From NCBI GenBank assembly GCA_036172245.1, contig JAYWIR010000051.1, forward strand, positions 744,001 to 808,000: DNA of 64,000 bases, read 5' to 3'. How positions within the stretch are numbered: position 1 is the stretch's first letter; each line of letters opens with the position of its first letter. The DNA is from Raillietiella orientalis. Taxonomy: Eukaryota. Under the pieces are notes generated by a model. The model made no database searches, had not been told where the DNA came from, and saw only the letters and a list, made by a program, of their open reading frames with translations. Positions 15,701-61,300 of this stretch are shown piece after piece. Position numbers and translations under genes: made by a program.

Positions 15701-16140
15701 ATCCGGACTGCCTCGAGCTGGAGTAGATCTGACTCCTTGGTCCCGTTACTCGTGATGAATCGAAACAGAATGGGCACTCAAAGCTCCCTAATGCAAAACT
15801 AACGCTGTTGCACATCCAATGCCGAATTCCTGTAAATCTTTATACGAGCTCTCCTATAGCCATCGACCGCTTCAAACTTTGCTGCTGTCATTTCCGTTCT
15901 TCTAAAGCCCTCGTATGATCCTCAAAGCAGTCAGCGACGATCTGATGTAACGGATAGTTTACATCAGCCAGAGATGTATGTAACGAGGAAACGGGAACCA
16001 AAGTCACAAAATTGCGAATGCAAGGATAGGTGTGCACAGAAATAAGTACCTCGGAACATTAATCACGTTTTTCTCAATGACAGACTGCGGCTGACCTTCC
16101 AGCTTGCATTTCACGTCTGCTCGACTCGGATAATCACCGC

Positions 16141-16141
<1 letters not shown>

Positions 16142-16168
<27 letters not shown>
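16142..16168. repeat. (CA)n microsatellite
   Basis: Run of about 13 CA units seen directly. Confidence 0.95.
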
Positions 16169-16171
<3 letters not shown>

Positions 16172-22799: not shown

Positions 22800-23900
22800 T
22801 TCGCCACTCCGCGCACGGGATCAATCATCGCCCGCGCGCGGTCGTGCATCTTTGCTTCTTTCCCCGAAACACGAGGATTCCCGTGCGCCGGGTCACCTGC
22901 TCTCTGGAGGGGAAGCGCTCCACCGCTCACTCTCCCGGGATGCTGCAAGCGCGACTGCCTGAGCTGCTGAAAACTCCGGTGAATTCTCGGGGCCCCTGCT
23001 TCGCTATGTCGAGCATGGCGGTTCGGTCCACACAAGGCAGGGGTCTCCGACGAAGGGATGCTGAAGAGATGAACTGGACTCCACGAACTGCTACTGCCTT
23101 ACCCTCTTCATTCTTGTCGCCTGACGCCCTTATCCTCAGAAACGATCTTCAGGGGTAGTCTCAAGAAACTGAAACCTCAGAAGGAACATTTTTTAGTCTC
23201 ACGGCTTGGGCTTCACTAAATGGACTGCTTCCCGCAGGACGGGACCAGAACAACGACAGGGTTGCCATTCAATAAAATATTTTTCTTCTCGTAAGCATGT
23301 CCGCCGAGCGCCTTGGCATGCCTCAGATGGAGTTTCCTCGCGCACCACGGTAACAGGATGGACCAAAAATCTTCCTCCTAGGGGAAGCAATCTACGCCGA
23401 AGGGACCGAAGAGCTTATCAACGCCAGGAGGTTTGCAACTGCCGGTCCCTTGGCTGAGCAGGACGCTGGAGAAGACGACTGGTTTGGACGGGTGTCCTTC
23501 AGTTCCCCATTTTTTGTCTGCTTTCCAAACTTGGCGTGAGAGGACTTGGAGTCCTGGAAACAACAAGAAACAAAAAGGCTCACGCAGCAACCACCTTGGC
23601 GAGAACTGCCACCGAGGAAAGCCACCGCCTGCTTCGTTCAAAGTTACGACTACTGGTATGGGAACCGTTTCTTGAAAGGGCGCCGAATCCCTTCCAATCC
23701 CAGATGTTTCAGGAGACTGGAAACCGATCTGCAGATCTGCTTATGCATGCATCACGCAGGATCGTTCCACATTTCCATTCATTCAGGGTTCCCGCGTCTC
23801 CGCCTTGCGTTCGCGAAGGGCTTCTTCGCCTCGCCCGACGTGTGCATCGTGAGAACGTTTCGGTCACTGTCTCTCTACAATCTCCAAACGTCACTTCACT
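22800..23900 (+). mobile_element. Possible decayed non-LTR RT relic
   Basis: LLLSPKHEDSRAPG, LGFTKWTAS (cf. LDF.KAFD) and PPRGSNLRR (cf. GVPQGSVL.P) in the expected order. Confidence 0.35.
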
Positions 23901-25399
23901 CGCTCGCGGTTCGCGTGTGCAAAACCGTGCGAGGGGCTTCCTCCTTTTTGTCCTGAACACGTCACGGTTTCCGACTCTTGAGCAAACAATCCCACTTTTG
24001 TCCAAGGCGACATTTCGCCAGCAGCACGGATTTTTCAATGGCTTTCCCTCTCTCCCTCTCTCTTTCTTTCTCGCCTCCCCCTCCCTGAGTTTTGGTTTCC
24101 TTCAGACACCCCCCCTCCAAGGATGGAGATGGAATTGTGTCATCAAGGCTATGACGATGAGGCACGTGCGTGGGATGCGTGCATGTTTTGCAATTATTTG
24201 GGCCACTCATGCAAATGAATATGTGCACAGTGATGCAGTTGAGGTACATTTTACGTGAACACGTATGTACAAATATTGCATTTAGCTATTGGAATCCGAG
24301 AGCGTGGGTTCTGTCTTAAAATGTGTTACTTTGGCGATGATGAACTCGCAGCTATCGGGTGCTGGTGCCGTCGGCTGAGGAGAAGTAATTTTTCCGTTCT
24401 GCATGAATTTGAGGCCGAAACTTTCCGAGGGAAAGCCTGAGCATTAAATAAAAGCTGAATTCATGGATACCACGCACAACAGAGAGAATCACCCGCCCCG
24501 CTTTCTCTCTTTTCTCGTGTTCTCATCCCCGTGTTTTCACTCGAAAAGAACCAGAGGAAAACAAAATAACGGGCACATTGCTACAAAGAATGTTGCTTCG
24601 TCTGCAGTGCTCCGACACTCCTTGAAAATCTCCTAAGGATCCCATTTCGCTTCAAATTTATGCGTGCATAGGTCGTTTCTTTCCAACAATTTCCGCCCTA
24701 CTTCAGATTTGGATCCCAAGATTGGTTCTTCAGAACAGTAAATTTCGATCCAAAACGGGGGGGAATTCTAAAGAACACACAGAGAGACACCTGCTTTAAA
24801 GCAGATACTGAATGAAATTCCGCAGTAATTTACAAAAAAAAAAAAAAACAGACGGTGATGAGTTCGCAGGAAACTTCGGCGGTTTTTCTTTTTCTTTTCC
24901 GCTAATCATAGAAAACAAACAATCATAACTGCACCCAGAAAACTTAATTGAAAACGCAAATGCTCGCTGGATGGAACCCTTGCCTGATCCTCTACGATGA
25001 GGTTAAAACAAAGGCTTTCCAAAGGGGGGGGGGGAAGAAAGAAAAAATGGAAGCCAACTCTTTGCACGACAGCTGCAGCAGTACTAACGAAAAACAAATG
25101 AAGCCTTTCTTTCAGAGGAGGAAATCGCACTGACAATCTTACGGTGCTAAATAGGAACAGGACTAGGATGAAATTCCCGATAGATCCAGGTTTCGACCTC
25201 GTAAAAATGGTGACTATCATAATCAGTACAGCCCTCCTGAAAAAAGCATGACGTAACGAAAAAACGAATTTTCAAACACAAAAAAAAAACAAATCTCTGC
25301 AAAAAAAAGAAAAAGAAATGAACGCAACTCCGTTATCCCTTTTCCAGACTCCAAGTCATGAAAGTATTTCGTAAAATAATCAGAGGGTAAGTGCAGGGG

Positions 25400-36603: not shown

Positions 36604-39600
36604 ATGAATCATCTGTATCTTTGCCTCGGCACCGTTGTATTCGCGGCAAATTGGTTGGGCTCATTTTCGGATGGTAATTTGATCTCTTTTGCACATTTTT
36701 GTCCCCACAGTGTGACCTCCTGTTCTGTTGAGTGTGATTGTTCCCCGGGAATGCGGATGGCAGCGAGGGATGTGCTCTTGGGCCCAGCTGTGCTTTATTT
36801 ACTTATTTGTGTGTTTGTTTTTATTTTTTTGCGTTGCCGAGCATTTTTCTGGTGATCGGATGCGGTCGCCGGGGTTTCCTGTCTGTGGCCGTGGATGCAC
36901 GTTTCCCGTTCCGCGGCCCGGGTTTCGGATTGCGACGCAGAGCGCGTCTCGCGGCCGGCCTCCCGGTGGAAATCTTGCAATCCGACGGAACCCCGCCGTG
37001 ACTCGCCTGGTCAGGTCGCCCCCTCGTTTCGAAGTGGTGTTTGCAATTCGCACCAACTCCCCGGGGGGCAACCGTGAGCAGGCGGTGCCAGTGGCGGAAG
37101 CGTCCAGGAGATGGTTGACTGCGGCCGCAAGGGCGCCTTTGCCGTTCGGCCGCCAGTTTTCCAATTCACACAACGATGCACGGGTGAACGCGGTTGTGCA
37201 TCGTCACGTCACGTCACGTCACGCTCTTTGTACCGTCAAGCCCGTGATCTTAGTCAGGCCCATTTGCCAAGTTTCGCGCGCCCGCTCGGCCCTACACGCG
37301 CCGGCATCCCTTTACGCGCGCAGGGTGTCTTTATTGTCTCAGAATTATGTTCTGCCATATGAAAAAAGAAAAAAGTAGAGAGAGCATACGAATCGGAAAG
37401 CACTTTAAAGAATGCTTGTTGACATACACGTTTTCCAGGAATGGTATCCATTCGCTACGCCCTCTAAATAATACTACTGAAAGCTCACCCAATTTTTCGT
37501 TTTCCTTTAGATTTGTTAGTTTATACTGTAGCAACAGAATCGACGGATGGCTATAAGCGTTTCATTCGTTCTGCGTTGGAGTATGGAATCTCCGTGCAGG
37601 TGTGCCTTCAGAAATGTTTTTAAAACTTGAAATTTCATTTGATATATTTGAAAGACCCTCGGGATGGGTGAAGAATGGAAGGGTGGCAATGTCAAGAAAC
37701 TGTCTGGGGGCGGTCACAAAGTCAATCTGTTGAAAAAAGCCGTTGCTAGCCTTCCTGAGGTCGAAAATCAGCTGCTTCTGTTCACAGATAGGTAAGAATG
37801 TGCTTGCATACCAGCTTATCGTCCACCTAGTTATGATGTAATCTTCACTGGCACTGCAAATCAGATAGTTAGAGCCTTCAAAAGCTTTAATGCTAGAATA
37901 GTGTTCTCAGCAGAAGCTTTCTGTTGGCCTGATGCAACTCTTGAGAGCAAGTACCCAGAAGTTGCCAAAGGAAAGAGATTCTTGAATTCTGGTGGTAACT
38001 AATTGCAAGTTCTGAAGAAGCCTCTTAGCTTGAATGAGTTTAGGATTTTTAAGTTATGCTGCAGACTTGAAGAAATTATTAGAATGGCGTTCCATTGAAG
38101 ATTCTGATGATGATCAGCTATTTTACACACAGGCATATCTGGATCCTGAGCTACGTCAGAAACTGCAGATGACACTAGATCACACTTCCCTGATTTTTCA
38201 AACCCTGAATGGTGCAAGTGGTAAGAAAGTTAGGATTGTGCATATTTCTTTCATCATATTGTTGCAGCTGATGTTGAGCTGCAATTTCATGGCCAGGAGG
38301 CATACCTCCAAAATGTAGCTTATGCTACAGTGCCACTTCTGATTCATGGCAATGGTCACTCTAAAGGACTTTTGAATACCTTTGGCAATTACCTTGCTAA
38401 TTCCTGGAATCCTGAACAGGGTTGTGTGGCATGCTTAGAAGGGCAGTTTAGTTTGGCTGACCTGCCCCAATTGCCAAGGGTTACACTTGCAGTGTTCATT
38501 GAACAGGATACACCTTTTTTTGAGGAGTTTCTGGAAAAACTAATCGCCCTTGAATATCCAAAAGATCTCATTGATCTTCTGCTGCACAATATGGTTCGTT
38601 GACTTTCTGACAGTTTCTGTAATTATGTGTTTCCAGTCAGCTTACCATGCACAGCATCTACAGGCATTCCTCAGCAGCCATGAGAAAATGTACAAAAGCA
38701 TTTCTTGGCTTCCTGGCAAAGAGTGGCATGCACGTAATGCAGCCTTGTAAGTGACCAGAAGCAGTGTAATCTAAGCTATGTTTGCCATCAGGGATCACTG
38801 TCATAGCACGCATTGTGAATATTACTTTAGCGTGGATGCAACTGCCCATCTGGATGACCCTTACACATTGAGGGCACTAATTGAACAGAATCGAACGGTG
38901 ATAGCTCCGTTACTTATACGCCCGTACTCTGCATGGTCCAATTTTTGGGGTGCCTTGACTCGTGATGGATTTTATTCACGTTCAGCCGATTATATGGATA
39001 TCGTAAATGGTAAACGACGGTAAGATGTTCTTAGTCGAAGTCGATTGCGTAATCCGTGCGGAAGAGGCGACGGTCGACGGCGTATTTGTTATCTGCTACA
39101 CATTCGTACAACCCAGCATCCATCTGCGTTGCCGGATCAATTTCCATCTTGGATCGTATGCGGTCTATTCCTGTTTTCCATTCGTGCACCTACGCTGCGC
39201 TGTGCCGGGACCATCCATTTTTGCTTATCGTCATACCCGAAAAAAGTTGTGAGCGTACAACTCGATGCCGTCTTTGAGCCAGGTTATGTACGGACGGGGA
39301 TCTCCAACTGCGTCGCACAGAAACACGATCTTCCTCCCCAGCACGTATTCCGATTCGAAGTGGGATGCCATGATGATTTTCGCACCCTGCAAAATGATTT
39401 TTTCTTTTTTTTGCCTCCCCCAGGAGGTTCTTTACTTCGCCACGCAGCACGAGGTCGTGCAAGCAGCGGAGCAGAAAGTGGGAGTTTTCGGGGAATCTCT
39501 GGAAATCCCAGACTGGGGGAAGTCGGGTGTTTTATTTTGATAGTGGTGGTTCGCGGCGAGAAAAACACACAAAAAAACAAAAGAACCTCGTGAGGTTTTG

Positions 39601-42600
39601 CGGATTCTCCTCCTCCCCTTTCTTTTCCTCCCTCCTCCCGCTCCCCCCAACTCTCCCTCATTTCTTGGGGTTGGGGCAGGGTCACCCCTCCTCCCATGCC
39701 CCCTTCCCCCCCTCCCACATCCACACCCGAACCACTGTCTTACCCTTGGATTCTGGTAATACTGAGTGCTCTCAGCGTTCAGGATAAGCGTTCCTGGCAT
39801 CTTGCTGAAAGTTTTGCTGCCTCTTCCTCTCATACCCCTCCTCGGAGCTCCCTCAGCTAAAGTTAGGATAAACAGTATGCAGATGCTGGTGGTCTTCATG
39901 TTTCCTCTTGCATTGCAGGCTCTCCTTCCTCATGCGCGCGTTGCACGCGAAGGGTTCGGTCCGCTCGCGGGCTGAAGGGAGACTTAGAAGGACCGGCTGA
40001 TTCATCTTCCCGGAGATATACGGGCGCGCAGATCGAATGTTCTCCGGATTTCGGCGTGCCTGGAGATCCGCGTTCCTCCCGCGATCAAATGCGAAAAACG
40101 AAGCAAAACGAAAAAATCAAGCCGATGCGGTGCGGCAGATGGGAAGGGAGGTGCGAACTGACGGTCCCCGTGGCTGCCCCACTTAATCTCCTGCGTGATT
40201 CCGAAGCCGATCTTGAGGGAGCGAACCACGCAAGACGAAGCCCCGGTGGCGAGACTGACGTTTTTCTCGTGAACAGTGGCACCCCATCCACCCACCCACC
40301 CACCTGCGCGCCATTTTCCGTTGCATGCAGATTCTTTCCCTGGGTTCACCCCGGACAACCTACAGCTTCCTCCGCGTCGAAATGATTTCTCGTTGCGCAG
40401 GTCCCGCCTCACGGTGCGGATCGCACGAAGGGATGGAGAATCGACGCGGCTTTCGCGTGGCCTGGGTGCACTGTGGGTGGGAGAAATGGCGGGGAAGGGG
40501 GAGAGGCAATGACGGCTTGCTTTCGTCTATCTGTAGAGGGGATCGGGCATTTCATGACCGCCGTTGCTCCAGGGAGAGAGCTCTGCTGCTGCACCCGAAA
40601 CAGCAGGTGCTTGTGCAAGACCTCCCTCGCCACTCTGGAGAGGTTCTCCCAAAAATGAGCGAAGAGGGCGATGTCGTTCCCACCATCGTCGCCCCCAGCC
40701 GTCATCGCGCTCTTGCGGCCCGGCGCTTTCTCTGGTGCCCTTCTGTCTGTCTGTCTCCGGATGTTCGCTCAGCGAAGGGGAATTTCGTTCCCGTCCTTCC
40801 TTTGGCGAAGCCTGTGGCCGACGCTACCCGGCCAGGAAGCGCACCCTCTAGCACTTTGCTACCTTGGCGAGGGCCGTAGCACCAGCGGGAGGGATGAAGG
40901 CTTTCCTCTGACGCGGCCGAGTGCCCTTGCGCGCCCTCCGAACGATCGGGTGACTCTCCCGAGACGCGGACGCCCGGATCCTCCCGCTGATTCGATCTTC
41001 TTCCTCGAGTTTGGGGTGGGTTTCGCTTCCGGACCACCGAAGACGCCGCGGATCGTGGGGTAGGACCTGCAACGCGACGCTCCCCGGTTCGGGGAGCGTC
41101 ACATGATACCCGGATGTACCCGTGATACCACGGATGCATGTGTGCGTGCATGACGTAGGGAATGCTGGGATGCAGCGTTATGGTGCTCCTCACGGTCTTG
41201 ATGCGGAGAGGAGCGGAAGGACCCTTCCGGGTGGCATCCAGCCAATCCTTCCAGGTGCCAAGGACGGGTTGCCCTGAGGAACTTTTCGCCAAGCCGCGCG
41301 ACAGCATGTGCGAGTTTGATCCTGAGCTTACAGTACAGTTGCGTTACCTCTCGCGAACTGTACGCGAGTTTTCGAGAAACACTGCATCTTAATGTCAGTC
41401 TAACAGGAGGCTTTTTTCTTCTTCTTTTGAAAACTCGTACCGAAGAGCTTAGGGCGTCGAAGTCCCGGGATCGATCGGGGTGCGGCACCAGGTGTAGCTC
41501 CGAGGCTTCGTTGTCATAAGTGCCTAGTTACTTTAGAGGGAGCTATCTCTGCAAGAAACGAATTTGCCTTGAGGGAGGAGACATCCGGCATGTTTTCTTG
41601 CGGAAGCATGCATGGGTTCTGAGGCTTGGTGTCAGGCTTTGCTTTCACATTCCGGAGTGTCGGAGCATCCGCAACACCCAGCGTACTCTTTGATCTGAGG
41701 TGGCCGTCCCTGGCAGCAAGCGAGAAGCGACCGTCCTCGGAACTTGAAGGCTTCGAAAGCTTCCGACCTGAGGCGACGCCCCACCTGCACGGCAGAGGGG
41801 AACGGTCGCGAACGCGTCGGATGCTCGAATGCAGATTCCGAGGCCGCATCCCTGGAGTCTTTGGTTTCAGCTTCTGTCCCCTCTAGGGGTGTGTGGAACG
41901 TGCCGTTCATGTCGGGCGCCTACCTGATCCGAGGGCATCTGCTGTGGAGCGAGAAGAAGAAGGCTTTCAACTTCATCAGCAACCTCCTGGATGCAGACAT
42001 GGCGTTTTGCCAGAACCTGCGGGACAGCGTAAGCCTCGCCTCGCGGAAGCTTCCTCGACCCCTCCCCGCCGCCTCTTCCCGCGCAACAGGACATCTTCAT
42101 GTACGTGACCAATCTCAGAGTCTTCGGCCACCTCGTCGACCCCGTGGGATTCGAGACGAACCACCTGCACAACGAGTTGTACGAGATCAAGAACCAGTGG
42201 GACTGGGAGCAGCGCTACCTCCATTCCAACTACTCCCAGATCCTGTCGGGCCGTGTGCCGGTTGAGCAGGCAAGTCCCCGCGCGTTTTCCTCTCCCCATC
42301 CGGACCTTGCAGGAGCGCCGCCATCCCCACACCAGCCGTGTCCGGACGTGTTCTGGTTCCCCTTCGTCAGCGAGCGCTTCGCGGCGGAGCTGATCGAGGA
42401 GATGGAGAATTTCGGGAGGTGGTCCGACGGATCGAATCACGTACGGCACTTCCCGGCCCGAGTGGCCTCTGACGAGCAGCCCCTCTTACCTGCGTGTGCT
42501 CTTTTTCCTTTCCCCCCCAGGACACGCGGCTGGAAGGCGGCTACGAGAACGTGCCCACTCGCGACATCCATTTCAAGCAGATCGGGATGGAAAGTCAGTT

Positions 42601-43059
42601 CCTGCACATGCTGAAGCTGTACATACAGCCCGTGCAAGAGAGGGTGTACCAAGGATACTCGAATGACGTAACACGAGCGTGCGCGTTGGACGTCCGTTCC
42701 TCCATCTCCCCTCTCTTGCAGCCTCCCCATGCCGTCATGAACTTCGTGGTCCGCTATCGTCCGGACGAGCAGCCGTCCCTGCGGCCGCATCACGACTCGT
42801 CGACGTACACCATCAACGTGGCCTTGAACCGCGCCCACGTGGACTACGAGGTTGGATGGGGTCCAGGGCGCTCGTTTCGTTCACCCGGCCGTGCATCCTT
42901 CAGGGTGGAGGCTGTCGGTTCATCCGCTACAACTGCAGCGTGGTGGACACCCGCGTGGGCTGGGCGATGATGAGTCCCGGACGTCTGACCCACTACCACG
43001 AGGGGCTGCCGGTCATCAGTGGGACTCGCTACATCATGGTTTCTTTCGTGGATCCCTGA
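36604..43059 (+). CDS. PLOD: Procollagen-lysine,2-oxoglutarate 5-dioxygenase (multifunctional lysyl hydroxylase/glycosyltransferase), ~14 exons
   Basis: Putative signal exon 36604-36673 ([23 protein letters not shown], less certain). Then [110 protein letters not shown] and [20 protein letters not shown]. Large intron at 39020-41886. Confidence 0.96.
40550..41700 (+). mobile_element. Decayed non-LTR RT relic inside the 2.87-kb PLOD intron
   Basis: [10 protein letters not shown]...WCPSVCL (cf. WKea.VVPi.K...YRPISL) and [18 protein letters not shown] (cf. v....S..f.v.tGVPQ). Confidence 0.45.
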
Positions 43060-43064
43060 AGATA

Positions 43065-43070
43065 AATAAA
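43065..43070 (+). promoter_or_regulatory. Putative polyadenylation signal of PLOD
   Basis: AATAAA 5 nt after the PLOD stop codon. Confidence 0.65.
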
Positions 43071-43237
43071 ACGGAAAGAGAAAAAGAAAAGGAAGAGAAA
43101 GGGGGAAGGGGGGGGAAGGGATCCACGGATACCCCGCTTCCGGTTCTTTCGCGGAAGGTGGGAGCTGCGCGCACGCGTACCACCTAGAAGCCCCCCTTCG
43201 TTTTCTCGCTGATTTTTTGGTCAACTCTGGCCCGCAG

Positions 43238-46027
43238 GACGAAGCCGGCGCACCTCCCCAGCCCTCCGTCATTCGGAAGCTGGACGAGGACGTCATCAAC
43301 CGCATCGCTGCCGGGGAAGTGATCCAGCGTCCCGCCAACGCGCTCAAGGAACTGTTAGAAAACAGGTATTCCCTCCTTTACCATTCCCGTCTCGCGCCTC
43401 AGCGCCCTCTCCCCCCCCCCCTCTCTCTCTCCCCCTTCCCTCCTTTCCTCTTATCATCGCCCAGCTTGGACGCGAAGGCCACGAGCGTGCAGATCACGCT
43501 GAAGAACGGAGGGTTGAAGTTCCTATCGGTCCAGGACAATGGCTCTGGCATCCGCGCGGAGGACCTGCCTATCCTGTGCTACCGCTTCACCACCAGCAAA
43601 CTGCGCTCCTTCGATGACTTGACCTCCATCTGCACCTACGGATTTCGGGGAGAAGCCCTCGCCAGCATCAGCCACGTCGCGCACGTCAGCGTGACCAGCA
43701 AGACCACTGACTCCAAGTGTGCCTACCGGTGGGTGTGGGCGGCGTTCCCGGAATGCAGTAGTGGCGTGACCGACCCTTCCTTCGCCTGTTCCAGAGCCTC
43801 TTACTCGAACGGACAGATGCTTGGCGACGCGCAGCCCTGCGCCGCCAACCAAGGGACCCTCATCCAGTACGAGGACCTCTTCTACAACGTGCCCGTGCGT
43901 CGCGCGGCGCTGCGCAGCGCGACGGAGGAACACTCCAGGGCTCTGGACGTAGTGACCCGCTACGCCGTTCACAACGCCTCCGTCAGCTTCGTGTTGAAGA
44001 AGCAGGGCGAGGGTACTGCCGAACTGCGCACCCCCGGCGGCGCCAATTGCGTGCCGCTGGACGGCATCCGCCTCCTCTACGGGACGAGCGTCGCCAGGTA
44101 GGAAGCTCGCGCGCTTGCGCACCGTGACCTCTCCGCCGCTCCTCCCGAACCTCGTCTCGCTGCTTTCTTCCCTCCCAGGGAGCTGCTGGAGGTGAGCCTG
44201 GAAAACGCGGACCTCCGCTACCGCATGGAGGCACTGGTGTCCAACGCCAACTACTCCCTGAAGAAGTTCGTGTTCCTCCTGTTCATCAACAACAGGCTGG
44301 TGGACTCCTCGGGTGAGTCGGACGCGAGGAGGGCGCGTACCCCTCCCCTTCCGGGAGGCAGTTCCCGGACGTGCGCCCCCTCTCGCAGCCCTGCGGAAGG
44401 CCCTCAGCTACACCTACGCCACCTACCTGCCGAAGGGCACTCACCCGTGGATCTACCTGAGCCTGCGCATCGACCCCAGCCACGTAGACGTCAACGTGCA
44501 CCCCACAAAGCACGAGGTGCGCTTCCTCCACGAGGACGCCATCCTGTCCCAGATACAGCACAAGATCGAGGAGCGCCTCCTGGGCGCGAACACCTCGAGG
44601 ACCTTCTACGTGCAGGTGCGGAGGGAGTACGCCTGTTCGCCCCTCACGGCGGGTTGTGGGGCTGCGCGTGTGTGCGTGCAGACCGTGCTGCCCCAGTCGT
44701 CCTCGTCGCAGACGACCCCCTCCTCCCAGCCGTCGCCGCAGACCTGCAGAGTGGCGGCAGCGGCGGAGAAGCCGGGTAGGGAAAAGCCGCCGCGGCCCTA
44801 CGCCCACTCTCTGGTGCGGACGGACAGTAGGGAGCAGAAGCTCGATCGCTTCCTGACCACCGCCGACGCGTCTCTTCCGCCCTTCTTCTCCCCCTCCTTT
44901 CCCGGCGGCGGGAGCTCCGATGACTGCGCAGCGGCGGCAGCAGCAGACGGGGGGGCTGCCTCGCGGCAACGGCCCGATCCCCCGGAGAGGTACGCGCAGG
45001 AGGAGGCGGGGGCGGCGGCCCGGGACATGCGGCGCCTGTTCCAGCGGCGAGCCCCGCCGTCGTGAGATCCGGCTGACCAGCGTCCTGCAGCTGAGGAAGG
45101 AGGTTGAGTCCCTCTGCAGCGGCGACCTCAGGACCGTCTTCCAGGGCCACACGTTTGTCGGGTGCGTGGATCCCCAGCTGTCCCTGGTCCAGCACAACAC
45201 CTTCCTCTACCTGTGCAACACGACGAGGTTGAGGTTGGCGTCCCCCCCCCCCTATTCTCCCCATCTCCCCCTTCTCCCTCTTTCCAGCGAGGAGCTGTTC
45301 TACCAAGTCATCCTGTCCGACTTCGGGAACTTCGGGCTGCTCCGGCTGGACGTGCGTGTCTCCCCCACCCCTCCCCCCGGTGCTCACGCGCCCCCTGCTT
45401 TGCAGCCCCCCGCCTCGCTCTCGGAGCTGGCCAGGTTCGGCCTGGACGACCCGTCTGCTGGCTGGGAGGAGTCCCACGGCTCCAAAGAGGAACTGTCCGC
45501 CTACATCGTCTCGTTTCTCCTGTCGAAGGCCGAGATGCTGGACGACTACTTCTCCCTGCAGATCGACCGGGAGGGCCTGCTGGTCGCCCTGCCGATGCTC
45601 CTCGGTAAGCCAGGGGATCCCCCCCCCGCAAGTCTCTCGGAAGCGTGGGAGACGCAATACGGTCCCGCCTTGCAGAAGACCATGTTCCCAGCTTCGAAGA
45701 TCTCCCATCCTTCGTCCTGAGGCTTTCCACCGAGGTCGACTGGGACTCTGAGAAGGAGTGCTTCCAGTCCCTAGCACGCGAGATTGCCCGCCTCTACTCC
45801 GTGAAGAGCGCCTCCAGCCAGGTGCGTACGTGCGGTCCGGGGAGCTGCATCCCTCCCTCGCACCCCCGCCCTCTGACGCCCTTTTGCAGTGGCAGTGGAT
45901 GACGGAGAACGTGGTGTATCCCCGCCTGAAGCAGGCCTTCCTCCCACCTGCCCTGCTCGCGAAGGACGGCAGCGTCCTGCAGATCGCCAATTTGCACGAC
46001 CTGTACAAAGTTTTCGAGAGGTGCTGA
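43238..46027 (+). CDS. MLH1: DNA mismatch repair protein MLH1 (11 visible exons; initiation codon not found)
   Basis: [86 protein letters not shown] and the diagnostic C-terminus DLYKVFERC*. Ten GT-AG introns were mapped. AATAAA at 46044-46049. Confidence 0.97.
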
Positions 46028-50468: not shown

Positions 50469-52232
50469 ATGACGTCACCAAAGTGTCACTCAAGTGTGCT
50501 TAGCCAGAAGCAGCTACTGAAGGAATTTTGTACCATAACAGGTCAGTGTTTTAGAAGTTGTATCGAATGCTGCAAAGTTTTATCTAGTAAAAGTATTTAT
50601 TCTGTGCAGCATTTTTGAAAAGTAACGCTTAAAAAGAACAATTGCTACGATAGCAATGATTTGAGTAGTTGGGCTCCATAATATTATATGATTAAATTTC
50701 ACAGTGTTATTCACAGTTTAAATACTTTACCTGGGTTTTGGAATGTGCATTATATTTTTATTTTTATGTTTATGTGTGTTAGTTTGTAGAATGCAAGCAC
50801 AAAGCACCTTTTTATAATTTTTAGGATCCACAAAAGTGGTAGCAAAGAGCATGTTAGATGCTTGTAATGGAGATCTCAATCTTGCTATTTCCATTCACAT
50901 GGATAACTGTCTTCCAAGTACATCTGTAGATGAGCAAAGTGCTGTTTGGCATGAAGAAACTGATAATGTTCGAGCACCGATACCACCTACACAGGAAGTT
51001 CTTGTTGATGATGACAACTGGAACTTTCCATCAAAACGCAGAAAAGGGCATTTAGTATGTGATAGTTTTCGTGATTTCCATGCTGAAGCAAGTAGGTATG
51101 GATTAAATCTTAGTGCAATCGGTATTAAGGAGTTCCCCAGAAAAACAGGAGGAAATGCTTCAAGGAATGCATAAGCCCACCTCCAAAAAATTGTGCACAC
51201 TTGATGATCTTTTTCGACCACCACTTGATCTTATATTTCCTGGAAGCTTTCAAATGGCACGTGATGCAGGCATAGCAAGGAGTAAGTGGTTGATGGTGAA
51301 CATCCAGAATTCCAAAGAATTCTGCTGCCAGATTTTGAATCGAGATGTTTGGTCCAATGCAACTGTAAAAGCATTGATTAGGGAGCACTTTATTTTTTGG
51401 CAGGTTAGCCACACTGTTCTTTAGAGCTTGATGATTGAATTTCATTGAATTAGGTGTATCATGATAGCACCGAAGGAGACCGTTATGCTTTATTTTATAA
51501 TATAACAAAATGGCCACATGTAGCCATTTTGGATGCACGAACAGGAGAGAGACTAATGATACTGAATAAGGTGGATGCAGTCACTTTTTGTGATGCAGTT
51601 TCTGAGTTTCTTCAAGAACATATTCCTGGGAGCCCTTCTGGGAATGGTCCTATCAAATCTGAGGTGAGACTTGATTTTTTATAGGATGACATGATTGCAT
51701 ATGTAGGTTTCCATAACAAAATGTGATGATGCAGATACAGAGGAAAAGTCTGCATTGCCAGTGCCAGTTTCCATGAATGCTGGTACTTCTCATTTGTCTG
51801 AGAGCTCTGATGAACTGGAGACATTTGGCTCTGACAATGAACAAGATGCTCCCAAAGAAATTGATTCAAGCACTGCATTTAATGAATGGACAGATGCAAC
51901 TCAGAATACAGGTACATACTGTTGGATAAGGAAAAATTGATTCTCTGTAGATTCCAAGACTCAGCTAATCTTGCGATATCCAGATGGCCACAGAGATAAG
52001 CTAATGTTGCCATGCCACACCAAGCTTCAAGTAAGTGGAACATAACTCTTACATGTACATTTTTGCATGCCAGGCCTTAATTGCATATGTACAAGATAAA
52101 GGATACAATAGCCAACAATTTGAACTGGTTGCAAACTTTCCCAGACGCAATCTTAGCAAGCTAGATGTACACCTAACACTTAAAGAGTCTGGATTATATC
52201 CTCAAGAGACTGTGTTTATTCAGAGGTCTTAA
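50469..52232 (+). CDS. UBXN7: UBX domain-containing protein 7 (UBA-UAS-UBX), p97 cofactor
   Basis: UBA-like domain (EFCTITG..AKSMLDACNGDLNLAI); VRAPIPPTQEVL; TLDDLFRPPLDL; UAS (KWLMVNIQNSKEFCCQILNRDVWSN..EHFIFWQVYHDSTEG..PHVAILDARTGE); UBX (LRYPDG..NFPRR..TLKESGLYPQETVFIQ). Confidence 0.95.
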
Positions 52233-52327: not shown

Positions 52328-53914
52328 TTATCTCAAAGGAAAATACATGTGGAAGCTGGGAGGGTACCTGGATCTTGGCAACCTCCAGGGGAAGAGCAAA
52401 CGCATTTCTTCTCTCACATGTTGATGATGGTGCAAGGAATGTCGTTTTCTTCTGAAGATCAGATGCTGCTGATACAAGTTTTGATACAATTGTTTCCAGT
52501 TATGAATTGTTCCTAGCTGTGCACTTTCCCGAGCAAAATCCCGAATCACAAGTCTATTCCACAAACATTCATCCTTATGAATCCACTGGAAATGCCAACT
52601 GGTGGCAGATAGGTGCACTATACTGACAACATCTAGATACAGAATGACCAATAGAGTAATTTCGTGAGGTAAACCAGGTAGTCCTAGAAGAGGTAATCCT
52701 GCACATTCTCTCTGCTTTTGTTTTATAGGAAATGCAATGCAGTTTTTAAAGTTGAGAGACAACAATGACAAATTTTGAAATGAAGATGCTGGTTGCATGC
52801 TTTTTCCTTCTCTCAGGTACATGTTCATCGATGCCGTATATTGGCAATGAATGTGTGATGCTGTTCCTAATAAAATATAGTGAATCACAAAACCACACAA
52901 AATTGTTTAACAAACCATGAATAATTAGCTTATTTCTCATTGGAATGATGTGCAGATAGCATGTGGATTCTGGAAGCCATTCAGTTATATAACTAATGCT
53001 ATAATAATCTGCATGTTTCCACTGGGTTAACACTTCCTGCTTTTGGGGTTGAAAACCACTTTCCAACATCAAACAGTGGCACACAATGACAAGTTTGTCA
53101 CAACTACTTAAGTCACTGGATTGTTGTAGCAGTGTTTCCAGGTGAAAGGGCAACTTCTCACATGTACTTTCATGTACCAGAATAGGTTCTTCTAAACATC
53201 TACAGATACAATCTGGCATACAGTGAAAGCAACATATATGGTTATATATGTAAAGTACCCATTTAAATATGGAAAGCAGATTGTGTGTCTTAATTGAGAT
53301 ACCTGTTCATTATGGATTGTCCCTTTGGTCCAGTGACTGTATTCATTGACTGGATCAACACAATGCTTGATTCATCAGTTTCTGATGGTTTGCGCTCTTC
53401 AGTAGGTTGCACATTCGGTTCACACAATTCATTTATGACCCAGATTAAGTCACCAGATACAAGACCTAAATCTTTAACCACAGCGCAATCAGAAGCCTGT
53501 ATGGGAGTTCTGCCATCAAGACTTATCACCAACTCCGAACTAGATATAAAATTATCCAATCATAAAAATTATTTTGCATTTCTTTGTCAGGGTGCCACTT
53601 TATTACATGGGCTATTGTACTGAAAGGCATCAAATGCTTATCAATCAGACAGTTTCTGAATAAGAACTAGCATTCTCTGAAGCAAAACCGGTATATTCCC
53701 TTTAAGCATCCCCATACGTATCCACCCAAGCATGGTTCATGTGGGCATCAACTCTTTGTAGTAATGCAAGAAAAAAACGTATTTACCTTTGCATGCGCGG
53801 CGAAAGTTTGTTTATCTTTTCCGCTATTGCTGCTTTCAGTTCCAGCAGGGTCGGATTATTTTCCAGCGTCACACTGGCACTTTGCTTGCACGGGAATTTC
53901 ACCCTAAACTTCAT
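52328..53914 (-). CDS. FBXO7: F-box only protein 7 / nutcracker-like (Ubl-FP-F-box-Pro-rich)
   Basis: Ubl-like N-terminus MKFRVK..LKAAI..ISLDG..DLGLVSGDLIWV; FP/PI31-like domain DKLVIVCHCLMLESGF..W..YSISY; F-box GLPGLPHEITLLVILYLDVVSIVHLSATS..LWNRLVIRDF..NWKQLY. Four exons. Confidence 0.85.
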
Positions 53915-55314
53915 TTCGATGCTTCAGCAGATGCACGCAGAATTTTGTTATCCGATCGTAGCGTAGATACGCGCTGTCTTGATTTGTCTTTTGGCTTCAG
54001 CACGGGTGGGCACCCGTGTCAAACCGTGCCTTCCTGAAGGGGACTCGCAGCATTTGGCATCAATCTGCTTCTCCTGCCCACGAAAATTTTTTCAAACCAC
54101 AAACCAAGGCATCAGTGTGGCATCCCCGACTGCTCTCACGACATGCTTGCACTACGGACTCTCGTTTAACGTGGCCCTCGGACAGCAAGCTCCTGAACTA
54201 CGTGGGGCCGGGCAGAAAAACTATCAAAGTGGGCTTACGAGGGAGGAGGGAAAAAAAAGGAAGATTGCCTGGGCAAAGACCCGGGCGTGGTAAAGCGGTA
54301 GCCGCTCTCCCTGCACCACCTGCTCGATCTGGGACGGTGGAGAATCGATAGGCACTTGGCTCAAGAGGCAAAACGGCCTACTCGTTCCCCTACTATTAGT
54401 GAATAGGGCTGCATCGCAACAGGGCGAGGTGTCTGAACGAAACTTTGGGTGCGTCTTCGTCATGACATGGATTTTCAAGTCAACTCGTGCATGCATAATA
54501 ACTCTTAAAGAATAAGTAACTCGTGAACTGGTTCCAACTAAGAAAAGTAATCCTCAGAAATGTGAAATTGAAGTCACATAAAGTGGCTGTCTGCGACTGT
54601 CGTTCCTTACAAACTGCAAAGCAAATTCGATAACATAAACACATAAAATGTGTAAAATAGGAAAATGACGGGAGGGCGGGAAGGGGGATGCAGAGTATTA
54701 ATTTAAATATGTGCAACTAGTAAATTCTAATCTAATACTAGCTTAGGAGGAAATGTAACGATCGCCAAATTTTCCTTACCTTATATATGAGAACGATAAA
54801 AGCTAGACAGGACTATTTTTGTTGATATTGCTAGATCAAAAAAGTCATTAAAGGAATTCGAAAAAAAGAAAAGCACGCGTCCACAACCTTGGAACATGAC
54901 CTTTTAAAAGTTAAGAAGAAAAAAGTACACACACTTTAGGGCATGTAGTTTTTCCCCTTGTTTTGCATCTACTAAGTATTTTCTTTTTCCAATATGTTCC
55001 CTGCTGAAATCTAAAAGTGTGCCGTTCTAGAGATTTTATTTTCGCCTTTATTTTGCTTCCTCGTCACAGAATTTCAATAAAAGCTTCGATAAATTCGCTG
55101 CTTTGAAAAATATTGCTCACAGAAAACTCAGTTGAAGCAACTGAATGAAGCCGAAAAACAGAAACTAGTAAGTGAAAATTTGAAATGAGTGCGAGTACTG
55201 ACAAACTGGTTTTTGTGTCCTAGTTGAAAATATGGACTAGACGGACCCGTCGAAAAGAATAATCTGCAAATTATCAGCAGGTTCCGATATTCGTAACTCG
55301 ATAAATGACTCAAG

Positions 55315-55478
55315 TAACAACATGCAAAAATAATGTATTGTCTTGCGATTAAATGATGTGTGGTAAACTAATACATGTGTATACATACACATCACACTTT
55401 GTTTTTTAACCGTGAAATATATGAGTTTACCACACATCATTTAATCGCAAGACATGACATTATTTTTGCATGTTATTA
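55315..55478. mobile_element. Fold-back / MITE-like element with ~59-bp terminal inverted repeats
   Basis: Arm 55315-55373 matches the reverse complement of 55420-55478 with about 4 mismatches; spacer about 46 nt; TA at both ends. Confidence 0.7.
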
Positions 55479-58311
55479 TACATATATGTATTGTTCTATC
55501 TATTGCTTGTGTGCATGTAAAAAGTTGGAATTATTTAAATATCAGTGAAGCAACCCTGAGCCAGAAACAACAACAACAGGAATCTTCTCAACAATTCGCT
55601 CAATGCACATATAGCAATGACTGAATGCAGATACAAGCAGAACAACCCTAATTCCGACGCTCTAATCAAAATAAATGATTCAACTGGTTTAATTTTGTGC
55701 AAGCCAAAGCATCGTTCAGGGTGTTTGTAAAGTACGGCATATGCACATGAGTGTTAGTGACTGGGAAGTTTGTCTAACAAATGGTTTAGCAGTCTTGATG
55801 CTGGCTTTGAGGACGCACAAATTCGCAAGACAACAAGGAACGATTGTGAAGTCAGAGAGGATTTGGATTCATATTAGAGAATGAGCTCACAAAAATCATT
55901 CTGGCAGTCTCAGTTACGTGCTTAAGGTTAAATCTCAGCCAGACGTCTGGTTTTTCGCTTCGCACCACCATCCATTGGAAAATAGTGGATCTATCCTCAA
56001 GATATAGCACAATTACTTAGATACTCTGCTCAATCATCCCTCTTCAAGATACATCGAAAATTCTGCGTGACTTTCTGCCAGCCGTCCAGACAGCGGGTTC
56101 TCTGAGATTTAAAAAACAAACCTTCGGCTGTTCGTCCCAGTGTGAAAGCTACAAAGGGGTATTTCCTACAGACTACAGACTCTGTTGATCTTACCTCGAG
56201 AATATTACCAGGACAACCAACTCCCCACTCCAAGTCGTAGGACACCTAGAGATCCCTTTCCAGAATCCAGCAGTTCAAGGAGGGAAATCGGTTTTCGACT
56301 CTCGAGATTTCTCCCCCGTTTGCGACTTGTGCTGAGCGCCCTTCACTCTAGAGGTGTCGCCCAACCAGGATGGAACACCGAGGTGACTCATCAGCATACT
56401 CGCAATCTTCCTCGCGAGAAGATGGTTTCCCTCGGAACTTTTTCCCTCCCTCTTAAATGAGGAGAGTCGGCGATCTGGGGTCTTCCCTGTGGAGCCGCCG
56501 ACGTTACTGGACCAAGGGAGTCCGGACTGCCGCAGGTGCGGGGAACGGGAATCCTCCCTCCCGCACCTGCTTGTGGACTGTGTTGCCCTCCGGCCCCTGT
56601 GGTGGGAACATTTTGGGATGGCCCTATGAAACCCCGGTCTCGCAAGGGCTGCTCTGCCGCCAGCCGTAGCCTCAGCAGCTCTTCGCCGTCCCCGCGGCAC
56701 TGCGGCGGCCCGGAACGGACGCGGAAGCAGGAGCGAACGAAAGGGACGCCACCTCCGCTTCCTGCGGACGGCAGCGAGGTGGCTCCACCCGGGTGCTATC
56801 CAGGCGAACTCAGCCGGCATCTTGAAAAGGATGCAGAAGATTCCCTCCAGCAGACTGCGATCCCTTCCCGGCCCTCCAGGGTGTTTTTATTGATTCATTT
56901 TTCATTTTATTTTTCCTTAGTTTTCTCCCCTCCCCACCGCTGTCGAAGGGGCCCTCGCCGGCCTGCGGACTGGCAACCTGGCAGGTCCCTTGTAGAGTCG
57001 AACGTAGTGGGGCTGAGTGTTCCACCCACCACAGGTTGTCCGTTTCTTGTTTTTTCAATCAACGCCTCGGCGCGACCGAGTGGAGACCCTCCTTCCCCCC
57101 CAGGGGGTGGATCTCCTGCAGAGCTGCAGGAGGAAAGAAGACGTTGGACGGCGTGTCCGACCAGCTGACGCTTTTTCCCATTCCCGCTATCTGTCCCAAA
57201 GTATCTGCCCCCCGAGCCGATCCTTCCGAAATCCCCCTTGGCAGAAATCGCGGCGTTCCCGGACTGTCCTGCGGCGGATGAATCGCAGTGCCCTGGCAGG
57301 ACGCTCCCGGCTCACTCAGGTCAGCACCCCTCGGACGGAGTCCTCCCTATCCCGGAGAGGGTGAGGTGAGTGGGGTCGCCATCCTCGCTCACTCCAGGGC
57401 AACAGCCGCTGCGGCGTTGCTTCCTCTGGTCTCCATGCTGCGTATTGTATCTGACGAACGCTGGGGACAACCCTCCACGCGGAGGGCGCAGATGTCGTCT
57501 CTGGAGGCTCCCGCCGGCAGTGGCAGCCGGTCCAATCATCTTCTCTTCCCGTCCGCCTTTACTGCTCTAGGGGTGGGGGATGGGGATGGGGGAGAAACGG
57601 TCCAGTTTGCAAAAGAGGGAGGAGGATAGAGGAGGAGGAGGAGGCCGTAGGTATCTCCCACAGGTCTGCGCAGAAGACGCGGCGGCGACCGCAGCCGGCG
57701 ACTCTTGGTTCCTATCCTTCATTTTTGTTTGCTTGCTGCCCCATCCCCCTTGCCGCCCCGGTTTTTGACAGCATCCCGTCTTACGAGCCAACGTGCCTCT
57801 GTCTTTTCGAGAGCTCTCTATTCCGCGTAAGGAGGAGAGCTTCCTGCTCTGCCTGCCTATTTATTCATTCGATGAGCGGACGTCCCCTGGCGCGTCCGTG
57901 TGGAACTGCCTCTCTCCACCTCAGGCTCGACCCTCAGTCCTGCTCACCGACCGACCCAGCATCCGCGGGGCAGGTGGCTGCATGATGTCAGATTCAGAGC
58001 CCATGAGTGGAGTCTTCTCGGGGATGCTGACCGGCCGGACCTCCTCAAAACGGGGAGGCCTAGAGGGAAGGGGGGGAAGGAACTGTTTGTCACCCGGGTG
58101 CGCCGGGGTGCTTATTCTTAAACTATCCAGGAACAGAGTTCCCGGACAAAGAACACAGAAAAAACGAAGGGAGGGATCCCCGACACGCAGGTCGGTAAAC
58201 CGAAAGCCCGGAACGGGAGGGAGTGGACCGCTAGTACACATATAAAAAATACAAATAAAGATATGGGGAGGGGAGGGGACAGGGGTCTTTGGCTTGGGCC
58301 GTTCCTTTCCT

Positions 58312-61300
58312 TCAGAACCGGCTATGGGTGCCGGAGATCTCGCTCCTAACGTCCTCTAAAAGATGGGCCCACTCGGCAGCCGACACCATGTTCACGCCGG
58401 CTATTCCGGTGGCCTGACGACGAATCGCCAGCTTCTCCAGCTCTCGGTGGGCCTTGTCGATGGCGCGTGTGCAACAGACCGTTGCGTGGACAGCACCTAA
58501 GGATAGACCACCTGGCGTGAAGAAGCGGAGCATCAAATCTTTTGCGGTGTCCCCCTGGTGCTGGAGAGCTGAGGCCAGCCTCCGCCACAGTCCTTGGAGG
58601 ACACCGCATTCTAGGAGCAGGTGGGGGAGCGTCTCCACTTCCTCGCACCGTTTACAGTTCGGGGAGACAATTCCCCCGGAAACACGGTTCGTCCGCTGGT
58701 TGGAGTGAAAACCCCAATGCACCAGCATGAAGGGACTGTGGAACTGTGGTGACTCCGCGTCGCCCGCCCCACTACGCCCGGCTGTCCTGGGCGTCTCGTT
58801 CAGCTTCCGCGTTCTCGAGAGCTGACCAGTGGGCGTTCCATCTGACGCCGGTCGCCAGTGACTCACGGTGGTTGTTCTCGTTCGATCCGCATATCAGCGG
58901 AAAGGAGGAGGTGCCGCTCACTGACACGATGGACAGCGAGTCCGGCATGCAGACTCCCGAAGCTGCTACCTTAACTCGAAGATCCAAGGGCTGCAGCATG
59001 ACCCTGGAAGATAGGTGCTTGAGTTAATTCCTTCTTCCCATCCCTCCTCCTCCTCTTTTCCTCCTCCCCCACTTTCCTGAAGGCTGGAAGAAGGAGGAGG
59101 AAGGGGAGGATCGAGCACTACTGAGGTGTCTCCGACCAGAAGTTCGCGCGGTCCTCTCAGGGTAGGTGGCCGGTAGGCCCACCGCGAACCGCGACAAACT
59201 GCGTGGTGAAAGCGAAGGGGGACGCAGGACTCTACCCTGGGAACGACCTCTGCCTGGCCACGAAGCAGACGAGCACCCGCGATGGCTGCGGAGCTGCAAT
59301 CACCCGTGGGAGGGGCAGAAGTGGAGGTCGAAATGGACGCCGTTTGCCCCTCGCGAGGCAGAGGAGCTTCCCTCCTTGGGGCCACTCTCTGAAGCAGAGC
59401 CCGCAGAAGCAATGGCGTAGGCCGCATGTTTTCCAAAGTGTTGGAATCCCGGGGGAACGAGGGATCCACGAGGGGATGGAGGGTCCCTAAGAAGGCAGGC
59501 GGAGCACATTCGGAAAAAAAGGGCCTGCTCGCGAGTTTCCCGCGTTCCCAGGGAGGACCCTGCGAGAAGTGTGCAGCCTGGAAGGAGCGCCCGTGGTGTG
59601 CCCTCAGCTGGCGCACCTGCAGCTCCCTTGCAGCCGCGAAGCATCAGCGAGGGTCGGCAAAGCGAGTGACGGTGGACCCATGGGAGCTTCACGCCTACAG
59701 CCGGTTCACTCCCGGAATGCCTCGGCGTCCGATCTATGGTCTCCCACCCCAAACCAGAGGTCGGGTCATCAAATTCGAGGCCGATTTTCCCTTCCAGAAA
59801 CAGTCAACGTGTTTGAGGGGGCTCCAGGAAAAGGAAGGAGGACAGTCGCTGAAGTCTGTAAAAAAAAAAACTCTTCTCTCTCGCTGAAGGGGAGAGGGGG
59901 CGATTGCACTGCTGACCGAGCGCCCACGAGCAGATCTTGCGCGGGGAGGATGCGCGGCGGCGTGGGACGGATTGCCCCGGCGCGCACGCGGCCGATCCTC
60001 ACCGGGTACGGAGAAACCCCGCACTTTCCGAAGGTGGAGCGACCTACTCCTCTCCGCCTTCCTCCGTGGGAGATCGGAGGCAGGCCCGAAGGAGGCCAGG
60101 AGAAGAAAGGACCACCGAGAACTGGCTCTCCCCTCTTCCTCTCCTAAAGGGTGCCAGCACCGGCGCGGGCTCTCAGAGACCGCGGGATCAAGGAGGGTGG
60201 CGAAGTTCAGTGCGGGAAGTTTGGGGCCGCTCGCGCGCGTGAACACCAGGAGTTGGATGGATATGCGCTCCCTCGAAGCCACTGGTCCAGATGAAGCAGA
60301 CGGACTAAGTTCTCCACGGCAGCATCGTGAGCACTGCGACGAGGGACTGTCCCGCTGCACTCGGAAAAAGACGCAGGCGGCGCCGTTCTCCTAGACCAAA
60401 CGGACAGGATGCTGGGAACATGTTGGAGCAGGTCGCAGGACGTGGACGGCTGGATCCACCACAGGTGGAGGCCTGCGCTCCTTGGCTCCCCAGCGGATCC
60501 TGCGGATCATGCAAAACCTCATCTTCCTCGGGCTCTTCCCCCCTTCCTGGAAGCGAATCTTCGGTCTCCAATAAAGAAGCGGAAGTGAGGTAAGAGGGGA
60601 GGGAAGCTGCTCCAGGAATGCCAGTCGGACCTCCGCGGAAGAGAACAGGGAGAGCAGGAGAACGAGGACCTTTGCAGGCAGCAGCCCAAGCAGCGAGCTC
60701 CACTCAAACCTACTAGCCGCCGCGACAAGAGGGCGATGGAACCTCCTCCTTCCCCCGTTTCCTTGTCGACAAGAGCCCGGACGACGCTCCCAAGGTCCGC
60801 TCCCGGCCTGCACAGATGCGGCTCGGTCTTCTTCCGGTCAGGAGAGGGCGAAAAGCTACCACTCCCTGCTGCCCCAGTCGACACCTGCACCGCTCCCCCA
60901 ACGTGCTCCTCGCTCGACCCGGGCAGTTTGGAGACTGCCTCCGCCTCCGTTGCAGCTTCAGATGGAGTTGCTGGTCCTCCCTCCAGTTCGAGAGATGCGG
61001 AGGCGGGAGCCAGTCGGATCTGCCGGCGCGCCTCTTGAGCGAGGGCGCGGGAGTATTCGGCGCTTCTCGTGACCTCATGCAGCCAGGCTCGGAGGAACGC
61101 CCGGGGACCCTCCAAGTCCCGGACCGTCCTGCTTGCATGCCGACCTGGAAACCGGCGGAGCGACGCGGTTCCCTGGTGACGGGCGCGCAGGGCGGGACTC
61201 CCGTCAAGAGCCAAAGAGAAGGGCGTCGGCGGGAAGACGCGCTTCCTCCTGCTCTCCTCCGGGGGCATCGCGCTGTGGACCCGTGGACGCCAGAGCAAGC
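58312..61300 (-). mobile_element. Decayed non-LTR (L1/Tx1-like) retrotransposon ORF2
   Basis: Clear zf-RVT motif SPNCKRCEEVETLPHLLLEC..LW in ORF 58312-58866. Upstream, in order: GGPTGIP (cf. PGPDGIP), SRPRPATCSN (cf. wRPIsllN), ALNFATLLD (cf. LDF.KAFD) and RARRGNPS (cf. GVRQGCPLS). Many frameshifts. Confidence 0.75.

Follow-up and report, generated by a model that had tools for sequence, protein, structure and literature searches.

Cellular genes of the EIF4G2/DAP5 type are translated only from near-cognate codons. In flatworms, the donation of an initiator AUG by a spliced leader is established (PMC9851317, in an excerpt citing Cheng et al. 2006), and the Schistosoma leader is given as ending in ATG in an excerpt of PMC7986045. 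Leader trans-splicing is also known in copepods and amphipods, according to excerpts of PMC4664967, PMC7986045 and PMC3282834. Here we analyse a stretch of 64,000 nucleotides from the Raillietiella orientalis assembly GCA_036172245.1 (contig JAYWIR010000051.1, positions 744,001 to 808,000 of the forward strand, referred to as the window), which holds a complete and conserved MLH1 gene without an ATG for its translation. The gene follows, on the same strand, a gene for PLOD, the collagen-modifying procollagen-lysine dioxygenase/glycosyltransferase. MLH1 belongs to the core genes of mismatch repair. A copy that is intact but has no usable AUG implies either an unusual start or a fresh null allele, and we tentatively consider an initiator ATG spliced in from a small upstream exon.

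Results

A gene model for MLH1 was built from tblastn blocks combined with a junction search. It extends over 43238..46027 (+ strand), comprises 11 exons and 699 codons, ends at the stop codon TGA 46025-46027 and contains 10 GT-AG introns and no internal stop. Pfam searches with single-exon open reading frames (ORFs) revealed HATPase_c_3 (6.1e-11), DNA_mis_repair (1.5e-21) and Mlh1_C (5e-38), and the predicted protein therefore has the GHKL ATPase N-terminal domain, the MutL transducer domain and the Mlh1 C-terminal domain ending in FERC. In addition to this C-terminal FERC, the motifs NRIAAGE, ENSLDA, DNGSG, GFRGEAL and HPTKHEV are kept. Among the 156 alignment columns that are invariant across 27 orthologs (chosen from 120 hits), 141 are retained, and the first two exons match a bivalve ortholog at 78% and 75% identity. 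The N-terminal exons have thus been under constraint at the protein level, and their translation has to begin upstream of V43268. The initial annotation, made from the sequence alone, had described the gene as undamaged apart from its start, which the model bears out.

What the gene does not possess is a complete ORF with an initiator AUG. A script scan of the + strand detected zero ATGs in any frame within 43039-43538, the ATGs around this site being located at 42856, 42967, 42970, 43036, 43539, 43614, 43753 and 43817. The resulting gap of 503 nt ranks third in length among those between the 76 ATGs that the + strand has at 40-48 kb. When the MLH1 frame is followed upstream from 43238, its first stop is TAA 43067, and there is no ATG in this frame between that stop and codon 139 of the model, which is the first in-frame ATG (43817..43819, + strand) and lies inside the ATPase domain. 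The initial annotation had stated that no + strand ATG occurs from the PLOD stop to the MLH1 N-terminus, that the frame is closed by TAA 43067 and that the first in-frame ATG is found at about 43817, and all of this agrees with the scan and the frame walk. It is confirmed that a complete, conserved MLH1 exists here without an ATG for its translation.

The first recognisable MLH1 coding exon covers 43238..43365 (+ strand), flanked by cccgcag/ as acceptor (43237) and AACAG/gtattc as donor (43366), and an alternative phase-0 acceptor is present within it at 43261/43262. Codon usage around this site was evaluated as log-odds of MLH1 and PLOD-3' codons against GC-rich non-coding triplets. The segment 43125-43157 looked non-coding with -0.63 per codon, a value that 99.9% of true 11-codon windows exceed, 43238-43267 was ambiguous (-0.05 per codon), and from 43268 onwards usage was coding-like (+0.49 per codon). 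As codon usage becomes coding-like only around 43238-43268, a start of the exon at a phase-0 acceptor is supported. The expected length of the N-terminus was judged by the N of NRIAAGE, which all 120 orthologs have at index 13-29. With Met at junction 43238 it would come to lie at index 21 and with Met at junction 43262 at index 13, both within the ortholog range. A start at TTG 43217 would give index 27, reached by 2 of the 120, and a start at ACG 43125 would give index 31, longer than in any of them. Decapod MLH1 proteins begin with MEAG or MEPG, and the counterpart here is DEAG. Taken together, these sequence data suggest that the MLH1 exon probably starts at a phase-0 acceptor.

The MLH1 acceptor is situated 178 nt behind the PLOD stop on the same strand. 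The last PLOD exon (42904..43059, + strand), placed by tblastn to orthologs and junction search in a PLOD model whose reading frame is open throughout, ends with ...YIMVSFVDP and TGA 43057-43059. For the 5' end of PLOD, no more than a candidate exon for a signal peptide was identified. The last PLOD Met codon is the nearest ATG upstream of MLH1 and, with the sequence ATG/GTTTCT (43036..43040, + strand), a candidate for a shared start and donor. Only 5 nt behind the PLOD stop, and still ahead of the MLH1 acceptor, lies the PLOD poly(A) signal AATAAA (43065..43070, + strand). The AATAAA of MLH1 itself begins 17 nt behind its stop (46044), so that very short 3' untranslated regions (UTRs) are normal here. 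Further into the spacer, a candidate leader exon segment, ACG..AAG (43125..43157, + strand), is in frame with MLH1 once a candidate intron of 80 nt (43158..43237, + strand; donor AAG/GTGGGA, ctgat at 43209-43213, acceptor cccgcag/) is removed. It overlaps a cluster of promoter-like motifs (43137..43177, + strand) with CTTCCGG at 43137, TTTCGCG at 43147, CGGAAG at 43152 and GCGCACGCG at 43169, which may be ETS-, E2F- or NRF1-type sites and which were picked after the fact. In the unspliced frame, TTG 43217..43219 (+ strand) is the sole near-cognate codon within 100 nt, and its context has T at -3 and G at +4. The initial annotation had located these elements correctly, namely cccgcag/GAC at 43237/43238 with ctgat at 43209-43213, the ATG at 43036-38 followed by GT, ACG 43125 brought into frame via donor 43158, and the in-frame TTG 43217.

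Splice sites were scored with weight matrices trained on the 22 modelled introns of MLH1 and PLOD. True sites were ranked in a leave-one-out procedure, and 317 AG and 247 GT sites taken from 5 kb of GC-rich sequence outside exons on the same strand served as decoys. The acceptor at 43237 obtained a score of 2.6, which is undercut by only 7 of the 22 true acceptors and reached or exceeded by 58 of the 317 AG decoys (11.6 per kb), and so its earlier description as a strong 3' splice site does not hold. The phase-0 acceptor at 43261 scored 1.1, with 76 of the 317 AG decoys at least equal to it (15.2 per kb). Donor AAG/GTGGGA at 43158 reached 6.1, a score at least as high as that of 14 of the 22 true donors and hence better than the median, with 14 of the 247 GT decoys equal or better (2.8 per kb). 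Donor ATG/GTTTCT at 43039 scored 2.3; only 3 of the 22 true donors were lower and 84 of the 247 GT decoys were at least as good (16.8 per kb). Among the modelled introns, 21 of 22 measure 39-99 nt, with a median near 55, and one measures 2867 nt; the length of 80 nt is typical here. The donors of the MLH1 and PLOD introns (37600-45889) are loose altogether, with T at +3 in 3 of 22.

MLH1 and the six 3' PLOD exons belong to a domain of about 39-48.5 kb with 57-68% GC and a CpG observed/expected ratio near 1. The seven 5' PLOD exons, a kinase gene and a UBXN7/FBXO7 gene pair are AT-rich and CpG-depleted (0.2-0.4). Within PLOD (37513-43059) composition shifts abruptly at intron 39020-41886, GC content at third codon positions (GC3) rising from 0.39 in the seven 5' exons to 0.85 in the six 3' exons, and the short introns 5' of it have 25-46% GC, those 3' of it 61-70%. 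In MLH1, GC3 is 0.87, Met makes up 0.7% of residues versus 2.0% in orthologs, and Gly, Ala, Arg and Pro together make up 26% versus 20%. Conserved Met columns were defined as those with Met in at least half of the 27 orthologs (n=7); Met is kept in one of the seven, and three are now CTG. The 15 sites at which MLH1 departs from invariant columns changed mostly in a GC-raising way (I to V three times, K to A or Q, H to R). By these measures, the MLH1 protein has been pushed by the GC-biased regime of this domain, with a shift in make-up to Gly, Ala, Arg and Pro. A Glu that is otherwise invariant in the ..CERFTTSKL.. motif is Tyr in this MLH1.

The origin of the DNA was examined with both proteins. 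A quick IQ-TREE phylogeny of PLOD with 51 rows (this gene and 50 of 120 hits), from which most hymenopterans and other insects, the two-copy flatworm proteins, a fusion protein and fragments were left out and in which no myriapod was sampled, placed the gene inside a pancrustacean clade (SH-aLRT 99), on a long branch and without resolution within the clade. A FastTree phylogeny of MLH1 with 43 rows (this gene and 42 selected hits) agreed with an arthropod position, the odd amino-acid make-up being flagged. With exons only, the best identities for PLOD were to a spider (59.5%), a barnacle (59.2%), and a termite and Artemia (58%), and for MLH1 to decapods (56%) and mussels (55%). From these data we take the host lineage to be pancrustacean, or at least mandibulate. 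Protein searches and a metagenome scan did not reveal a close relative; the best raw-query MLH1 matches had 51-54% identity, and the best metagenome locus 66% over MLH1 exon 2 (80 loci kept).

A flatworm origin, which would have made a leader-donated AUG more probable, was considered and rejected, as the top Taenia and Fasciola PLOD scores belong to two-copy proteins whose single stretches reach about 100 bits, no better than arthropods. The database proteins P0001, P0242, P0122 and P0123 contain internally duplicated segments (mis-assemblies or tandem fusions). Such duplication lets summed HMMER scores top the rankings, which could mislead on taxonomy, and P0001 and P0242 were rejected as relatives on account of their duplicated segments.

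Elsewhere in the window, a U4 spliceosomal small nuclear RNA (snRNA) gene was found at 995-1113 on the - strand (Rfam RF00015, 59.9 bits, full length). A UBXN7-like gene (50469-52232, + strand) with UBA, UAS/thioredoxin-like and UBX-like segments and an FBXO7-like gene (52328-53923, - strand) with a ubiquitin-like N-terminus and an F-box, both named partly from reading of the ORFs, converge with their stop codons about 95 nt apart. At 55315-55478 there is a palindromic element, a 169-nt stretch matching its own reverse complement at 80% identity, and this is the sole sizeable repeat in the self-comparison of the window. The regions 10000-24000 and 56000-61000 are extended GC-rich blocks in which both strands carry numerous long ORFs, and Pfam gave no match there. 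In 1-kb bins across 1-64000, the CpG observed/expected ratio is bimodal, being low (0.07-0.4) in the kinase gene at 5-8 kb, at 29-31 kb, in the 5' half of PLOD, in the UBXN7/FBXO7 pair and at 62-64 kb, and about 0.8-1.05 in the GC-rich blocks at 1-3, 10-13, 33-34, 39-48 and 56-61 kb. This bimodality looks like mosaic gene-body methylation.

Discussion

Of the explanations for an MLH1 without an ATG, we give the highest probability, about 0.35, to an initiator ATG that is cis-spliced in from a small upstream exon, a Met codon shared with PLOD included. The exon starting at 43238, or at the alternative acceptor at 43262, would then be an internal exon, and the initiator Met of MLH1 would be encoded outside the 178-nt spacer. 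Ordinary cis-splicing would join to it a small upstream exon that ends in, or soon after, ATG and is located on the same strand, inside the 3' part of PLOD or upstream of it. The existence and the position of this exon are what we infer. Close by, there is a single concrete candidate, the final Met codon of PLOD (ATG 43036-38, with GT behind it), and we consider its use as the MLH1 start very unlikely in itself; a distal upstream exon is no less probable. The interval from 30 to 43.2 kb contains 24 in-frame ATG..GT candidates whose donors score 4 or more, and the PLOD intron of 2867 nt, which demonstrates that long introns occur in this genome, speaks for such an arrangement. This intron (39020..41886, + strand) itself is a possible home of a distal MLH1 exon, although inspection for a nested gene or exon gave it no support: there is no Pfam match and no repeat in it, and its GC3 periodicity is at most 0.23 versus 0.27-0.44 in true exons.

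Several points weigh against an upstream ATG exon. The 24 candidates correspond to the chance rate, about 1.8 per kb, and none is distinguishable from chance; 21 of the 22 modelled introns are shorter than 100 nt; and MLH1 would have to be interleaved with PLOD on one strand, an arrangement that is rare. The weak donor at 43039 would have to outcompete the closer and better donor at 43158, which together with the promoter-like motifs suggests a local leader exon, and that exon holds no ATG. The acceptor at 43237 is no more than average for this genome. The initial annotation had offered, without a choice among them, a leader-donated AUG, a borrowed PLOD Met, non-AUG initiation, and a recent start loss or assembly error, and the first three have become weaker. 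What persists of that reading is the exon start at a phase-0 acceptor, an N-terminus of normal length if Met stands at the junction, and a plausible 80-nt intron. For the borrowed PLOD Met in particular, the ATG and the GT behind it are present as described, yet the donor scores only 2.3 against 16.8 decoys per kb with a better donor closer to MLH1. If an upstream exon does supply the start, MLH1 is interleaved with a same-strand neighbour, or a single Met codon is common to PLOD and MLH1.

Two rival explanations place the start codon in a local leader. A start codon could have been lost by erosion or appear lost through a base error, either in a leader exon ending at 43157 and followed by the 80-nt intron or in an unspliced leader, the ATG being mutated in this haplotype or lineage or mis-called. 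MLH1 would then be a fresh null allele or depend on trace near-cognate initiation. We regard this as rather unlikely, although the score of 6.1 for donor 43158, the low decoy density and the typical 80-nt spacing agree with it, and a single step separates ATG from AAG before that donor, from ACG 43125 and from TTG 43217. The GC-biased domain also erodes ATG, as the single Met kept in seven conserved columns, the three that became CTG, the GC-raising changes at invariant columns and the GC3 of MLH1 indicate, so that under such a substitution regime loss of the initiator ATG is thinkable and likelier than elsewhere. Against this explanation, one would a priori seldom expect a start-loss allele, or a substitution error that hits one particular codon, and MLH1 is otherwise fully intact. 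AAG/ is the consensus end of an exon, so its nearness to ATG means little, and a change from ATG to AAG or to TTG would not raise GC. Among the candidates only ACG 43125 would raise it, but this codon stands at the head of a non-coding-like stretch and would produce an over-long N-terminus. Should the start have been eroded by a GC-biased process, it would be a concrete case of biased substitution damaging an essential gene. A stable non-AUG start, at ACG 43125 with intron 43158-43237 removed or at TTG 43217 in an unspliced leader, is more doubtful still. As such genes require, no frame contains an AUG in the whole leader or in the first 300 nt of the mRNA (43039-43538 has no ATG), both codons are in frame, as the initial annotation had seen, and a local promoter is plausible from the motifs at 43137-43177, whose meaning is presumed. 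A strong near-cognate context would have a purine at -3 and G at +4; ACG 43125 and TTG 43217 share the G but carry T at -3, and UUG is a weak initiator. In addition, the codon usage of 43125-43157 is non-coding-like, and the NRIAAGE index is outside the ortholog range for ACG and found in only 2 of 120 orthologs for TTG. A start assisted by structure was rejected, as there is no unusual RNA structure downstream of the candidate starts: the fold of 43205-43320 has a z-score of 0.35 and is matched or surpassed by 120 of 200 shuffles. The coding signal, the N-terminal length, the poor contexts and the lack of a fold together favour an initiator Met at the junction rather than a long extension begun by a non-AUG codon.

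A Met at the junction could also be supplied in trans, the acceptor at 43237 (or 43261) receiving a leader whose 3' end gives an AUG in phase 0, the pre-messenger RNA being a polycistron of PLOD and MLH1 or else a short outron transcribed from a local promoter. The acceptor in phase 0 is exactly where Met is expected, and only 178 nt with a poly(A) signal between (43065-70, followed by the acceptor at 43237) separate the PLOD stop from it, the two genes lying on the same strand as in an operon. Trans-splicing in copepods and amphipods and AUG donation in flatworms, cited above, add to its plausibility. We nevertheless judge it improbable, since the prior for a leader-donated AUG is low given both the pancrustacean placement of the gene (SH-aLRT 99), away from the flatworms, and the 46-nt calanoid leader, which in Table 1 of PMC4664967, as excerpted, has no ATG and ends in ..AAGAG. 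An AUG donated here would need a type of leader not known in crustaceans. According to the excerpt of PMC7986045, operons have not been reported for copepods or amphipods. The acceptor is in phase 0 as expected behind an outron, yet the good cis donor (score 6.1) sits 80 nt upstream of it. The PLOD-MLH1 spacer is unremarkable, as the AATAAA of MLH1 lies 17 nt behind its stop and the stops of the convergent pair are about 95 nt apart; short spacers and 3' UTRs are general here and not particular to PLOD-MLH1. The three other genes with readable starts, for the Tec-type kinase, the UBXN7-like and the FBXO7-like protein, have their own ATG. No leader RNA gene was seen in the 64-kb window, where Rfam gave only the U4 snRNA, and no tRNA. 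Of the leader-donated AUG proposed by the initial annotation, the phase-0 acceptor thus stands, and the placement, the ATG-less calanoid leader and the usable cis donor count against it. The full combination of a pancrustacean leader ending in AUG, an MLH1 dependent on it and a PLOD-MLH1 pair processed like an operon has only a slight chance of being real. If it were, crustaceans would have their first operon, and an initiator Met donated by a leader would be found outside flatworms for the first time.

Compared with described systems, the locus shares features with each and departs from each. Like a flatworm spliced leader with a 3'-terminal AUG, a leader of this kind would explain an AUG-less intact ORF at a phase-0 acceptor behind another gene, but unlike the flatworm case (Cheng et al. 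2006, via the excerpt of PMC9851317) the PLOD gene groups inside the pancrustaceans and a cis donor precedes the acceptor. With the leader-resolved operons of nematodes, tunicates and flatworms it has in common a same-strand gene pair and a short spacer, and it differs from them in the promoter-like motifs within the spacer and in a host group whose leader-bearing members have no operons reported (PMC7986045, as excerpted). The AUG-free leader and an in-frame ACG or TTG upstream of a conserved domain recall genes of the EIF4G2/DAP5 type, but here the candidate codons have no purine at -3, the extension is non-coding-like and no downstream structure supports initiation. Genes whose ATG ends a small 5' exon form the remaining comparison. 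The partner exon is in the present case an inferred one, which would lie inside or beyond a same-strand neighbour, but as in such genes a phase-0 acceptor precedes the first conserved residues, the exon behind it is free of ATG and coding begins from the junction.

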